Shown in pieces: positions 43,501 to 46,500 of a stretch of DNA of 64,000 nucleotides. The notes below the pieces were generated by a model. The model searched no databases, was not told the origin of the DNA, and saw only the letters and a program-made list of their open reading frames with translations. The DNA comes from Hormiphora californensis (Eukaryota > Animalia > Ctenophora), in NCBI GenBank assembly GCA_020137815.1, contig CM035360.1:6696001-6760000 (forward strand), in the 5' to 3' direction. How positions within the stretch are numbered: position 1 is the stretch's first letter; the number at the start of each line of letters is the position of its first letter. The translations under genes were made by a program, and so were the position numbers.

Positions 43501-46500
43501 TGACAGATCCTTGAACTGTCCTAACCAATCAATTCCTAAAAGCTCTTCATTTAGAGAGTCCCAATCAGCTTTTCTATAGGAAAATTTCTTACAATTTTTA
43601 TACTTAGGGCGTGACTTTTTGAAATTTATCTCACATTTTAGTGTAAGATGGTCCGACTTTACAAGACTATTCTCTTCGAGCAAAACATTAGAATAAGTAG
43701 TTTCTATGTTAGTAAGTATTAAGTCGAGAATGTTTCCATCCCTATGCGTTGGTACATTAACTAAAGACTTTAGGCCTAGAGATAAAAATAAATTGATAAA
43801 ACTCTCATGAGTACTATTATTTGACACTGGTACGTCCCAGTTATCCACCGAACTTAGGTTTAGATCCCCTATAATGGTGAGATTCTTAAACTTCTTGGCA
43901 AGATTAGTATAGTAACGTTCCGCCTCTTTGAAGTGTTCCGATCCAGAATAATCATATCTATAAAATGTCGAGATACAAACGGGTGCTATATTTTTATGTT
44001 TTAGAAGAATAGTAACTATTGGTAAATCGGTCTTCGTTTTAACTAACTCTGTCTCAACTCCAATATTGTTTTTACATAGTATTAAAACTCCTCCACCTCC
44101 TTTTTTACTAAAAGTTTTCATATCCTTCTCAGTGCGGTCTTTTCTAAATATAGAGTAATATTTATCTGATATAAGTTCCCCTTCACTAATATATTTATTC
44201 AGCCAAGTTTCATTTAAAACAACGATATCGGGCGAGTAGGTGAATAAGTATGCTTTTAGATCCCTAAGTTTAGAGGCCTGAAATTCAGGCTGATCCCCAC
44301 CTATTGTGTGCATCTTTATCAGACCGTTAACATTACAATACACTAAGTTCAACTTTTTATCAGGCCCTGGATTAATAATGTCAGGATGGCTTCTCAGCAG
44401 TAGCATTTTCGCTAACGACGTAACAAACATAACAAGTATAGTATATCTGCATCTGACTTTGAACAAATTAATGCCTGCAATCCTAAACTTTTTATAACAT
44501 CGATATGCATACTTACTATGTCTCATACCTTTGACTAAGAAGAGGAATAGGACACAATTTGCATACCAAATATATGGTGAATTTAGATCAAACACAAATT
44601 GGCCTTCTTTTCTGAACTTGACGGGTGGAGGGGTACTCCTGAGCATTATTCCTAAAAGAGCTATCATTAGTATTGTGTAACAAATATATATGAGGAAATG
44701 ATAGATTATTATGTCTGTCGTTTCATTGTATTGTCTTTTGTTATTGTCGGTGTTGTCAATTTTTATCCTTTTCCCCCCAGCCAGACCCCCCGCAAAACCC
44801 CCAATAGCTTTTCTGTATTGTTCGACACTGATCATTGAATGGGAATGGGTTTAGGGTTTAGGAATGGGTTAACAAATGGGGAAATTAGGGGACAATGATG
44901 AAAACTCGGCCCCCAAAACCCCAGAGAATTGTTATCATTAAATTATATATTATAAATCGAGATATCAGTTAAGAACTAACTCCTCATACATAATCTCATT
45001 TAACACGTTGTACCCATTATTGTTGAGGTGTACTCCGTCCTCCGAAAACAAAACACTATTAAAATTAAGTTCATTATTTAAAAACTCAATTGTCCAATCC
45101 GACACTACACAATTCAAAGACCTTCCTACACTCATCACAATACGATTGAACATGAACACGTTACTCGCTATCCAACCACTATCAGGTCTGAGGGGGATAA
45201 CCGTAGCGAGAACGATCTCGGTATCATCCCCAAACCTTCTCCTAACCTCCCTAACTAAATCTACATATGCCTTATACACACTCCCTTTACCCTTACTCGA
45301 CCTTACAAACCCTCCCCAATATCTGATGTCATTGGTCCCAAACGCCAAAATAACCTTGTTAACCTCTAGACATGGGTGCGTCACTTCCAGTCCGTTCAAC
45401 ATATCCATAGCCAAACTCCCCCTCCAGTTCTCATTCGGCCTACAAAGTCTCGCCCCTGAAATCGAGATGTTCACTAGCGCCGGGTCCTCGTGGATCCACT
45501 TCGTCATACTGGTTCCTAGTAGAAGTGTCCTTGGTGTCAGTCTGGAGTTCGGCAGTGCTGGTGTTGGTAGAAGGGGCGATCTGGTAGGGAATACAGAGTT
45601 CTCTTCCTGATACCCATCTACGGCAGGCGGCGAGGTTGGCGACAAAGTCATCTGTGATGCTGGAGCTTCCACCCGAGACGGGTGTACTGCGAACTGGGGC
45701 ACCTTCTGGGACTTAGCTGGGGTTGGTGCAGGTGGAGTTGGTTCTGGAGGCGATGTTTTGTGCCTCTTCCTAAAAGACAGGGCATATCTCACGCCATGCT
45801 CAACCTTTTGTGCACGGTGCTTAAAGTGCTCTTGGCACCCTGGCTTCATGGTGTACGCCTCACCATCCTTAGTGGTTATAGACAGCTTAGGCCGCATCCG
45901 GCCATCTCCAAGGTAGGGAATGAAATCTACAGCACCATCGTTGCCGACGGTCACGACGGTGATAGGTGAGTTGTCCACCAGCGAAGTCTCGAAATCTGAG
46001 TGGTATCCCACGCCGTCCCCTTTTCTGTATCTAGTGACTAGGCAGGAGTTAAACTCAGTCCCTTGGTCCTTGTTAATCCTCCCCATCAGCTTGTTAATGT
46101 TCGTGTATTTAGTTATGTCCTTGGGTGCCAGGTCCACATTGGCCCACCCGTAGGGACACCCAGTGTTAGTTAGCCAGGTATTCTTGCCAGTTAATCCTCC
46201 TACTTCCCATTTCATCATCTCGAGGTCCTCATCAGAAACATATCTCCCGTGGTGGGTAACAAACTGATTCGGATCCTTTTCTGGAACTCCATCTCTCTTA
46301 CGCCTCTCTAGCTCCTTTTGTACAATCTGTATAATCCTCTCCAACACGGGCGATGATACCCTGGTAAAGACTTCCTCTAGAGGTGTGTTGTCTAGAATCA
46401 TGTTGGAGGCGTTGTTAACAACCATTCCTAAAACTCCATGGCTAAAACAGGCTGTTAATCCAAGAACATTGCGTCCTCAAATTAATTTGTTTAAAGTAGT

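Follow-up and report, generated by a model that had tools for sequence, protein, structure and literature searches.

An AlkB-type dioxygenase fused to an SGNH esterase in the ORF1 of a ctenophore LINE, and its possible action on the RNA or cDNA of the element itself

The question raised by this locus is what an AlkB-type nucleic-acid dioxygenase does in the ORF1 protein (ORF1p) of a LINE found in the window, i.e., the whole 64-kb stretch of Hormiphora californensis DNA that was analysed. What a LINE gains from the enzymes in its ORF1 is still debatable, and no RNA-binding fold had been known from esterase ORF1s. Such esterase-type (type IV) ORF1s are reported for CR1, L2 and RTE/RTEX LINEs, e.g., for the ZfL2-1 ORF1p with PDB entry 4C1B (PMC3905857, PMC4120745, PMC13343379), and a LINE ORF1 esterase has been reported to be dispensable for transposition (as cited in PMC13343379). 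An earlier note, made from the letters of this DNA, proposed that the element carries its own repair enzyme or epitranscriptomic eraser, and we find this interpretation as a whole partly supported. The reading that we prefer, with a probability of just over one half, is that the AlkB domain would free the RNA of the element, or its newly made cDNA, from RT-blocking methyl groups (m1A, m3C), as judged from sequence and a predicted model.

ORF1 (486 aa; 44965..46425, minus strand, as are all features of the element given below) consists of an amphipathic helix, an AlkB domain, a Pro-rich linker and an SGNH esterase, and Pfam profiles, PDB sequence matches and the fold all confirm the fusion of AlkB with the esterase. 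The two Pfam profiles that had been proposed as a check both score above their cut-offs, 2OG-FeII_Oxy_2 at residues 78-211 (E 2.8e-12, 47.7 bits against 31.2) and Lipase_GDSL_2 at residues 318-473 (E 8.2e-10, 39.9 bits against 32.9), and no further Pfam family was found in ORF1 at E<=1. In the N-terminal helices (residues 16-45; 46291..46380), the predicted model and the sequence give an amphipathic helix with a heptad-like pattern and a conserved hydrophobic face (L28, I31, V35, L39), for which we infer a coiled-coil role. The AlkB domain covers residues about 56-222 (45760..46260); the fold is as claimed earlier, and the start lies near residue 50-56, not 76. It holds the HxD, distal H and RxxxxxR motif of the AlkB family (PMC544882), with H142-S-D144 at 46002-45994, where the earlier note had placed it, H203 of FKH at 45819-45817, and R213 (45789-45787) and R219 (45771-45769) of RYALSFR, together with E146 (45990-45988) and a lid with Y92-x-W94. 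Behind the disordered Pro/Ser/Thr-rich linker (45538..45759), whose length differs among relatives, the esterase domain (44968..45537) has S306, G324, N365, D463 and H466 intact, again as first noticed. The predicted model (mean pLDDT 75.8; residues 225-295 of the linker disordered) contains a double-stranded beta-helix core and a nucleotide-recognition lid (ALKBH3 match, Foldseek E 2e-12), and it superposes on ALKBH3 (Z 20.6, rmsd 2.4, 172 aligned), ALKBH2 (Z 19.9, rmsd 2.2, 169 aligned) and SGNH hydrolases (Z 19.4, rmsd 2.4, 163 aligned). A profile built from three esterase sequences matches 4C1B (E 4.6e-5, rank 11 of 28), with an alignment that spans positions 6-184 of 197.

Upstream of ORF1, a 5' UTR of 50 nt (46426..46475) contains, as read from the sequence, two short upstream ATG frames; downstream lies an ORF2 with a hydrophobic N-terminal extension and an apurinic-type endonuclease in its first part (42772..44835) and a reverse transcriptase (RVT_1 E 4.8e-31, YADD) in a second frame (41424..42887), which is the arrangement of an APE-type non-LTR element. 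RVT_1 is the only family named for this RT in the Atlas; by its sequence motifs (21 protein letters, not shown), the LINE is a putative member of the CR1 group (CR1/L2/Crack/Daphne). The description of the LINE as apparently complete and young holds only in part. The first frame of ORF2 stops after a one-base frameshift near 42783, where one base is missing in the contigs of all four sequencing runs compared, the 3' UTR (40947..41423) ends without a poly(A), microsatellite or other short tandem tail, and any target duplication seen at the element's ends is at most 1 nt long. A second LINE fragment within the window shows neither remnants of AlkB or SGNH nor a leader. The ORF1 resembles type IV ORF1s in its C-terminal SGNH domain with the Ser, Gly, Asn, Asp and His residues (intact triad and oxyanion hole), its N-terminal helical segment and variable linker, the absence of RRM and CCHC, and its position upstream of an APE-RT, and it differs from them in the AlkB dioxygenase between helix and esterase, in the ctenophore host and in the spliced leader at the 5' end. 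The words AlkB, 2OG and dioxygenase are absent from the main texts of PMC4120745 and PMC13343379.

A one-off chimera had been named as a possible refutation, and the AlkB-SGNH fusion was found in more than 100 diverged proteins, ranging down to about 20-30% identity. We have found the five catalytic residues His-Asp-His-Arg-Arg intact in 122 of 125 aligned proteins, in which the median AlkB column is 43% conserved, so that the expected conservation among relatives is borne out; this aligned set was gathered by AlkB-based queries, which biases it toward conserved motifs. E146 is present in 125/125 aligned relatives, Y92 in 117/117 and W/Y/F94 in 119/120, and the five SGNH residues are complete in 96/125, most misses being truncations. 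Among the best 150 representatives of a search with an AlkB-only profile, all 101 proteins that continue for 150 aa or more beyond AlkB carry SGNH, as do all 79 that were kept out of SGNH-profile building, and nine of the 150 have a second AlkB domain. The earlier statement that no PHD is visible stands for the copy in the window (Pfam) and for its clade, to which most proteins found belong, and fails for some relatives, because a PHD-like finger (E 4e-6 to 2e-3, below the Pfam cut-off) precedes AlkB in 5 of 12 long-type relatives scanned. The PHD-like fingers of these relatives speak for chromatin and not for RNA, and were counted against the RNA-repair reading.

The relative L001 has an AlkB-SGNH ORF1 of 511 aa, 29% identical to that of the window, followed by an intact APE-RT ORF2 of 1186 aa that is 36-46% identical to the window ORF2, and a contig of a second organism spans the ORF1-ORF2 junction (44748-45190). 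DNA adjacent to ORF1 was seen for two relatives, L001 and L002, the latter ending just past the stop, and the LINE context of the other proteins is therefore inferred. On the whole, we hold it highly likely that AlkB-SGNH is an ORF1 architecture of a LINE family. Named relatives come from Pleurobrachia bachei, Mnemiopsis leidyi (one cluster, three accessions) and Bolinopsis microptera, the Atlas clusters are most frequent in Ctenophora, and in clusters of 17 and 21, numerous members that are almost identical lie on separate large contigs of long assemblies. Scans for further AlkB-SGNH loci gave 2 of 85 metagenomic stretches; 1 of 19 genome contigs had a cyanobacterial AlkB, 4 of 24 viral contigs had stand-alone or other viral AlkBs, a second viral scan gave 0/10, and tblastn against phages gave four weak records (<30% identity). 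In a tree of 36 domains, the element AlkBs form one branch (96/88) apart from the sampled cellular and phage AlkBs. The two AlkB trees contained 69 of 151 and 36 domains, respectively, without rows for RNA viruses, host ALKBH2/3 and human enzymes, and P0121 (short domain), short-type rows removed by thinning, outgroups that were almost duplicates, P0230 and the fragments P0203-P0224 were left out.

In our judgement the ORF1 AlkB is very probably an active dioxygenase, and the next point is which type it resembles. ALKBH2/3 account for 16 of 17 PDB sequence matches at E<=1, with ALKBH2 at the top, and rank first in Foldseek (rmsd 2.4-3.4, TM about 0.7). FTO (Z 18.5) and ALKBH6 (Z 18.0) stand only 2-3 Z units below ALKBH3, and therefore the fold alone leaves the substrate unfixed. 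ALKBH2/3 have the Asn of the 2OG-binding NxY motif; ORF1 departs from this type with Thr at this place, and the relatives have mostly Ser or Thr, with Asn in 14 of 124. An acidic residue after HxD and a Y-x-aromatic lid, which mark the ALKBH2/3 type, are both present, and E146 aligns with ALKBH2 E175, two places past HxD, whose Ala mutant is reported to be nearly inactive on m1A/m3C (PMC12295762). Human ALKBH2 and ALKBH3 thus have the lid, HxD-x-E and RxxxxxR in common with the ORF1 AlkB and are its best PDB sequence and fold matches; they differ in that identity is about 20% and that the ORF1 AlkB is esterase-fused and multicopy. Of the two branches left side by side earlier, repair of m1A/m3C is favoured over an m6A eraser because ALKBH2/3 are the best matches and the Glu is invariant: the predicted pocket resembles the repair enzymes more than the m6A erasers. 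Whether the substrate would be m1A/m3C, carried by RNA or cDNA of the element itself, we judge to be an even bet.

It is rather unlikely, though the most probable of the alternatives, that the AlkB acts on nuclear DNA, repairing m3C/m1A on cDNA or the target site or oxidising a silencing mark (5mC, 6mA), guided by PHD in some families. The PHD-like fingers described above and the top sequence match to ALKBH2, a DNA enzyme, would fit such an action; the PHD-free clade of the window's element, and the fact that ORF1 proteins such as L1 and L2 ORF1p act mainly on RNA, count against it. Also in its favour, oxidation of 5mC by ALKBH2, ALKBH3 and AlkB is published, though as an activity in vitro, which weakens its bearing (PMC6582317), and for PHD-fused proteins of the ALKBH3/ALKBH5 clade a role on DNA m6A has been proposed (PMC4738411).

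We regard it as improbable that the AlkB is an m6A eraser freeing the element RNA from m6A-based host silencing, in the manner of an orchid Gypsy enzyme that demethylates m6A in vitro, as reported together with a restraint of ONSEN RNA by m6A (PMC9289625). FTO is among the fold matches, but neither ALKBH5 nor FTO is among the PDB sequence matches at E<=1, ALKBH5, ALKBH9 and FTO are not nearest in fold rank either, and ALKBH5 superposes more poorly (rmsd 7.6, TM 0.55). The invariant Glu past HxD is moreover an ALKBH2-type lesion-recognition residue, and retrotransposition of human L1 is reported to be helped by m6A and suppressed by ALKBH5 (PMC7873242).

Slightly less probable again is that AlkB has been kept mainly as an RNA-binding or chaperone module of an ORF1p with no RRM or knuckle, catalysis being incidental; esterase ORF1s in Repbase are described as lacking a structured RNA-binding domain (PMC3905857), the two AlkB domains of some relatives recall multivalent RNA binders, and the mildly basic AlkB domain (pI 8.7, net +3) was listed under its support, but the Fe and 2OG ligands, which pure binding does not require, are among the most conserved columns. 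That AlkB-SGNH is a host gene or one-off capture beside an ORF1-less LINE, as unequal GC3 (0.50-0.58 in ORF1, 0.31-0.32 in ORF2) and the spliced leader expected on a retrocopied host mRNA might suggest, is largely refuted and very improbable in view of L001 with the same order and an intact ORF2, the bridging contig of the second organism, the near-identical members on different contigs, and the match of the esterase to that of a known LINE ORF1.

The preferred reading, clearance of RT-blocking methyl groups, has relatives among known systems. Esterase ORF1s are already known, as is AlkB, both from plant RNA viruses and from an orchid Gypsy element, the latter being a precedent for an AlkB-carrying retrotransposon that the earlier note did not mention. 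In Phalaenopsis, a lineage of retrotransposons has retained an AlkB whose cofactor residues are intact, and action on its own RNA is proposed; that element is an LTR (Ty3/Gypsy) one, recent and of one genus, whose AlkB is a separate ORF of the ALKBH5/ALKBH9-type m6A erasers (PMC9289625), whereas the present element is non-LTR, with AlkB inside ORF1p, an ALKBH2/3-type pocket as predicted and a deep radiation. Plant RNA viruses are likewise RNA-genome parasites with HxD...H...RxxxxxR and a proposed function in RNA repair, and there AlkB is part of the replicase, not of an ORF1 (PMC544882, PMC9289625). The BFVD fold list is headed by viral polyproteins (best E 9e-15), and no RNA-virus sequence was a named match in the sequence searches. 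As the earlier note had supposed, we found no description of AlkB in a LINE ORF1 in the published papers searched, a search that lay outside Repbase/Dfam. A second ORF1 enzyme, intact across a deep family, gives a handle on the question of RNA repair by retrotransposons and on the mark concerned. If the preferred reading is true, non-LTR elements would be a further group of parasites with an acquired AlkB, next to orchid Gypsy elements and plant RNA viruses, and in their case the pocket would be of the m1A/m3C type. The family also offers over 100 divergent AlkB enzymes whose evolution took place next to an RT, with a possible use in modified-RNA sequencing.

The 5' end of the element concerns how its RNA is made. 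Positions 46476..46509 agree at 32 of 34 nt with positions 11-44 of the ctenophore leader, which has 718 genomic matches in Hormiphora (PMC8527503), and are preceded by four non-leader letters (46510-46513); such a match occurs once in the window and in 0 of 100 shuffles, the alignment score being 60 against a shuffle maximum of 37. We rejected the candidate that this relic is an SL RNA gene, in which a GT donor directly follows the leader and an Sm site lies 20-60 nt downstream (PMC7986045): here GACGC follows in place of a GT donor, and no Sm site, AT(4-6)G, was found within 200 nt, which argues for a spliced product. Because the 5' end corresponds to the published leader, the element RNA was likely trans-spliced before being copied. 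Joins of leader and ORF1 occur on contigs of runs X3, X5 and X7 with a leader side of 15-27 nt, under the 31-letter bridge threshold. The leader-like stretch of L001 is not beyond chance (published-leader score reached by 81 of 300 shuffles), that of L002 beats the shuffles narrowly (1/300), the ORF1-ORF2 spacer of L001 matches the leader end over 12 nt, as chance would allow (25/300), and the window spacer has no leader-end match (190/300). In Hydra, a leader is reported on about 30% of TE long reads (PMC12220107); unlike in those reads, the leader here is part of a genomic LINE copy, directly before ORF1. The section on leaders in PMC8527503 does not tie genomic leaders to LINEs, and relics of this kind could account for some of the 491-718 leader copies in ctenophore genomes that lack an explanation.

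These observations can be arranged into a putative cycle. The element RNA would be trans-spliced to the host leader and thus capped at its 5' end, and the integrated leader, which ends in AG, could act as acceptor in the next round, so that a copy would need only read-through transcription. ORF1p would multimerise via its N-terminal helix, as ZfL2-1 ORF1p does; AlkB would bind single-stranded nucleic acid, supplying the structured binding domain missing from known esterase ORF1s, and would oxidatively demethylate Watson-Crick-face lesions so that the RT could copy about 5.5 kb, while the esterase might be directed to membranes or lipids, as proposed for ZfL2-1. The full scenario of a large and ancient ctenophore LINE radiation in AlkB-esterase, PHD-AlkB-esterase and double-AlkB-esterase forms, with active AlkB in ORF1p, spliced-leader-capped RNA, no promoter of its own and AlkB needed for full-length copying, is tentative and we give it well under even odds. 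In that scenario the marks removed would be RT-blocking base methylation, possibly m1A/m3C deposited by the host, or leader modifications; no RNA-repair enzyme would have been known before from a LINE RNP, and Watson-Crick-face RNA methylation would restrict retrotransposons in the earliest-branching animals.

The element is inserted within a tandem array of predicted hammerhead retrozymes of the non-LTR type. On its left are one partial and one whole 458-bp unit (40119..40946, plus strand) and on its right one whole unit plus 42 nt (46514..47013, plus strand), 100% identical to the left units; type I hammerhead motifs lie at 40444-40497 and 46928-46981 on the plus strand, and the LINE splits one array hammerhead inside helix III. 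The empty-site joint 40945/46514 was found in three of four sequencing runs. The motif scan for the type I core with three helices gave two matches in the window and 0 in 100 shuffles. Rfam at E<=1 reported no hammerhead, its sole match being a chance snoRNA, and minimum-free-energy folding recovered helices I and II and not III, with the opposite strand about as good; the hammerhead evidence is therefore the motif scan and not energy. We rejected the 458-bp repeats as LTRs or part of the LINE, because of their tandem arrangement, the empty joint found in other runs and the location of the hammerhead on the opposite strand; the array is the insertion site of the LINE and not its component, and one 458-bp unit may represent a long target duplication. 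The word ctenophore is absent from the main text of the retrozyme paper PMC7229834. As described there for non-LTR retrozymes, the units are tandem and low in GC with one type I hammerhead each, their length of 458 bp being slightly over the 150-450 bp given, and the motifs resemble those of axolotl in that helix III is weak and the base of helix II carries a U-U mismatch (PMC7229834).

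The minus-strand ORF1 of the window LINE, read from an ATG at 46425 to a stop at 44965 (486 aa), carries two domains above the Pfam cut-off, 2OG-FeII_Oxy_2 at residues 78–211 (E 2.8e-12) and Lipase_GDSL_2 at residues 318–473 (E 8.2e-10), and no further Pfam family at E<=1. The AlkB signature of HxD, H and RxxxxxR (PMC544882) is present as H142/D144 (46002–45994), H203, R213 and R219, and the SGNH set as S306/G324/N365/D463/H466. In an AlphaFold2 model made from 16 input sequences (mean pLDDT 75.8, pTM 0.44, linker disordered), predicted residues 48–223 match ALKBH3 (Z 20.6, rmsd 2.4, 172 aligned) and ALKBH2 (Z 19.9, rmsd 2.2, 169 aligned) and residues 297–486 match SGNH hydrolases, with which Foldseek was concordant. 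The AlkB-SGNH fusion with catalytic residues claimed in an earlier note, for which a profile search and structure prediction had been proposed, is therefore borne out by Pfam, residue positions and predicted fold. A profile of three of the esterase domains matched nearly the whole length of 4C1B, the ZfL2-1 ORF1p esterase (E 4.6e-5, rank 11 of 28).

The AlkB-SGNH ORF1 is a family and not the one-off chimera that the earlier note had considered. Searching 5,889 candidates with the whole ORF1 protein gave 15 relatives, of which 13 had precomputed assignments to both Pfam domains. An AlkB-only profile built on three sequences gave 123 longer proteins out of 7,990 that were scored (120 of them listed), and 42 shorter ones from a set of 1,275. 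When the query, the 15 whole-protein relatives and 109 AlkB-profile matches were aligned, H-D-H-R-R was complete in 122 of the 125 proteins, as expected had the catalytic residues been conserved among copies, and median column conservation in the AlkB domain was 43%; recruitment by AlkB similarity biases these values toward conserved motifs. The SGNH set was complete in 96/125, the misses being mostly truncations. Among 1.84 billion representatives searched without an index, 92 matched at E<=1e-30, rising to 1,163 matches at E<=1e-10. Both domains were found in 107 of the best 150, and SGNH in all 101 having at least 150 aa past AlkB, including 79/79 outside the set used for building the SGNH profile. 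Nine of the best 150 have two AlkB domains (P0340, P0342, P0359, P0376, P0380, P0381, P0384, P0385 and P0404; three confirmed by Pfam), with SGNH downstream in 8/9. Relatives with a species name belong to Pleurobrachia bachei (61% identity), Mnemiopsis leidyi and Bolinopsis microptera, and Atlas assigns the AlkB family in 5/5 rows shown, the four with recorded taxa being commonest in Ctenophora (1–3 members each). Taken with the leader match described below, these taxa make a ctenophore the most probable host. One NCBI match (P0049) labelled as a bacterial MAG was taken as putative contamination.

In a tree of 36 domains, element AlkBs form one branch (96/88) separate from 10 cellular or viral rows; within it the short type, which has no PHD and includes the ORF1 of the window LINE, is supported at 96/96, and the PHD type groups with two stand-alone AlkBs (98/93). 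A quick tree of 69 AlkB rows was also made, and the outgroup consisted of rows other than RNA-virus and host ALKBH2/3 sequences. The stand-alone proteins, P0229 and P0244 (about 190–200 aa), may belong to another mobile element; many of the 15 members in the P0229 cluster lie on large contigs. In P0135 an AlkB domain lies downstream of an endonuclease fragment in a single frame, which may reflect a rearrangement of the copy or an error in gene calling.

ORF2, which starts at 44835, encodes first an apurinic-type endonuclease and then, in a second frame, the RT. Since contigs from 4/4 runs have one base fewer at 42783–42784, this frameshift is private to the window copy or its assembly; of the "apparently complete, young LINE" described earlier, the order of ORF1 and endonuclease-RT stood and an intact ORF2 did not. 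From its RT motifs the element is a putative CR1-group LINE; Atlas names only RVT_1. AlkB-SGNH upstream of APE-RT, sought elsewhere, was found in L001, a DNA stretch with a diverged relative (511-aa ORF1, 29% identity, then an intact 1186-aa APE-RT ORF2), and on a 461-nt contig of a second organism, about 90% alike, covering the ORF1 end and ORF2 start. DNA context was thus observed in three places including the window, the remaining relatives being proteins only; in L002, another such stretch, the DNA stops just past the ORF1 stop. A multicopy element would account for two clusters, of 17 and 21 members, whose nearly identical sequences lie on separate large contigs, and for a Mnemiopsis cluster with three accessions. 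A hydrophobic N-terminal ORF2 extension ends in a degenerate 2A-like motif in the window (..NPGP, ~44380–44362, minus strand) and in L001 (..HPGP, ~2860–2890); such peptides are reportedly known from APE LINEs. A second LINE at 28244–30845 (minus strand), 5'-truncated and in two frames, has an RT with 51–69% protein identity to that of the AlkB element, and no ORF1 remnant was found in it.

By its sequence, the 5' end of the window LINE is the host spliced leader, apparently reverse-copied into DNA as the spliced product. Positions 46509–46476 (minus strand) are identical at 32/34 to the last 34 nt of the published Hormiphora californensis leader (PMC8527503; score 60 against a shuffle maximum of 37), and the final 26 nt match without a difference and occur nowhere else in the window (0/100 shuffles). 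We read it as a spliced product because neither the GT donor nor the Sm site of SL RNA genes (PMC7986045) was found downstream of it. The GG at 46502–46503, AA in the published leader, may be private to this copy, as a high-depth contig of run X3 ends exactly there. The join recurs on contigs of X3 (46314–46501, zero differences), X5 and X7 (45633–46502), where the leader side is only 15–27 nt, below the bridging rule; contigs in three runs (14–15 per run) further join the leader end to many other sequences. In Hydra, the leader was reported on about 30% of TE long reads (PMC12220107). L001 (518–573) and L002 (31–85) share an AT-rich stretch before ORF1, its terminal TTTTAG being followed by GT. 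The shared stretch scores 67, where the best of 300 shuffles reached 45, and may be another ctenophore's spliced leader. Compared with the published leader, only the L002 stretch resembles it (1/300 shuffles as good, against 81/300 for L001), and this leader-like stretch is suggestive only.

Both m1A and m3C block reverse transcriptase. We favour removal of these lesions as the predicted activity, because PDB sequence matches are to ALKBH2/3 (4/5 in one search, 16/17 in another), E146, aligned to ALKBH2 E175, and the lid Tyr are invariant (125/125 and 117/117), and ALKBH5 superposes less well on the model than ALKBH2/3. Against this, FTO and ALKBH6 are close by Z, and the Asn of the NxY motif is mostly Ser/Thr. 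In ALKBH2, E175A left about 5–10% product on m1A/m3C substrates (PMC12295762). ORF1p would probably multimerise through an amphipathic N-terminal helix, and its AlkB would bind the leader-capped element RNA and strip m1A/m3C so that the RT could finish. The esterase may act as in ZfL2-1, which hydrolyses esters and binds phospholipids, not RNA; as far as the source covers them, Repbase esterase ORF1p have no structured RNA-binding domain (PMC3905857), a role that AlkB might fill. An AG at the end of the integrated leader could make it an acceptor for a fresh leader, and copies would then need no promoter of their own. A role of AlkB on the DNA or chromatin side is unlikely, though the leading alternative to lesion removal on RNA; a scan of 12 long-type proteins gave a PHD-like finger, below the Pfam cut-off, in five, and the clade of the window LINE is the short type. 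The m6A eraser, the other half of the earlier proposal, we keep as a rival of low probability. Slightly less probable still is an AlkB used for binding only, the catalytic set being nearly always complete. That AlkB-SGNH is a chance neighbour of the LINE is very improbable, with GC3 far higher in ORF1 (0.50–0.58) than in ORF2 (0.31–0.32) counting for it and the L001 arrangement against it.

The AlkB-SGNH LINE ORF1 is real, family-wide and, it appears, undescribed. Esterase and PHD ORF1s are already known (PMC4120745, PMC13343379), and "AlkB", "2OG" and "dioxygenase" have 0 occurrences in the main text of these two papers. AlkB is present in plant RNA viruses (PMC544882), an oyster Tx1 ORF1 carries NADAR (PMC12477816), and a survey of AlkB architectures, in the part available, names PHD fusions and not transposon-borne AlkB (PMC4738411). 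The supposed novelty held for LINEs, for which we found no published description, although supplements (PMC4120745, PMC3905857, PMC4738411) and Repbase/Dfam entries could hold one; among other retrotransposons, orchid Gypsy elements have an m6A-demethylating AlkB ORF (PMC9289625). Literature joining "ctenophor" and "AlkB" gave only apparently unrelated work.

The LINE is inserted at a unit junction of a plus-strand hammerhead retrozyme array (40119–40946 and 46514–47013), recognized by repeat comparison and motif scan, whose 458-bp tandem copies are 100% identical; the empty joint was found in 3/4 runs. As in the tandem units of non-LTR retrozymes (PMC7229834), each junction has a type I hammerhead (two motif matches, 0 in 100 shuffles), and helix III of the middle hammerhead is interrupted by the LINE, which runs in the opposite orientation and is flanked by a duplication of no more than 1 nt. 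Loop variants of the array occur in other runs, and the 458-bp repeat is present in the second organism too. Array and LINE are enclosed by a non-coding inverted-repeat element (39359–47175) with G-run ends, AT-rich 10-mer subterminal arrays and an 8-bp target duplication (39351–39358 and 47176–47183). An inner part of this element is found again at 52436–52705 (77%), and host gene exons with a PWWP domain (36396–37570, plus strand; Pfam E 1.2e-11) adjoin the nested insertion.
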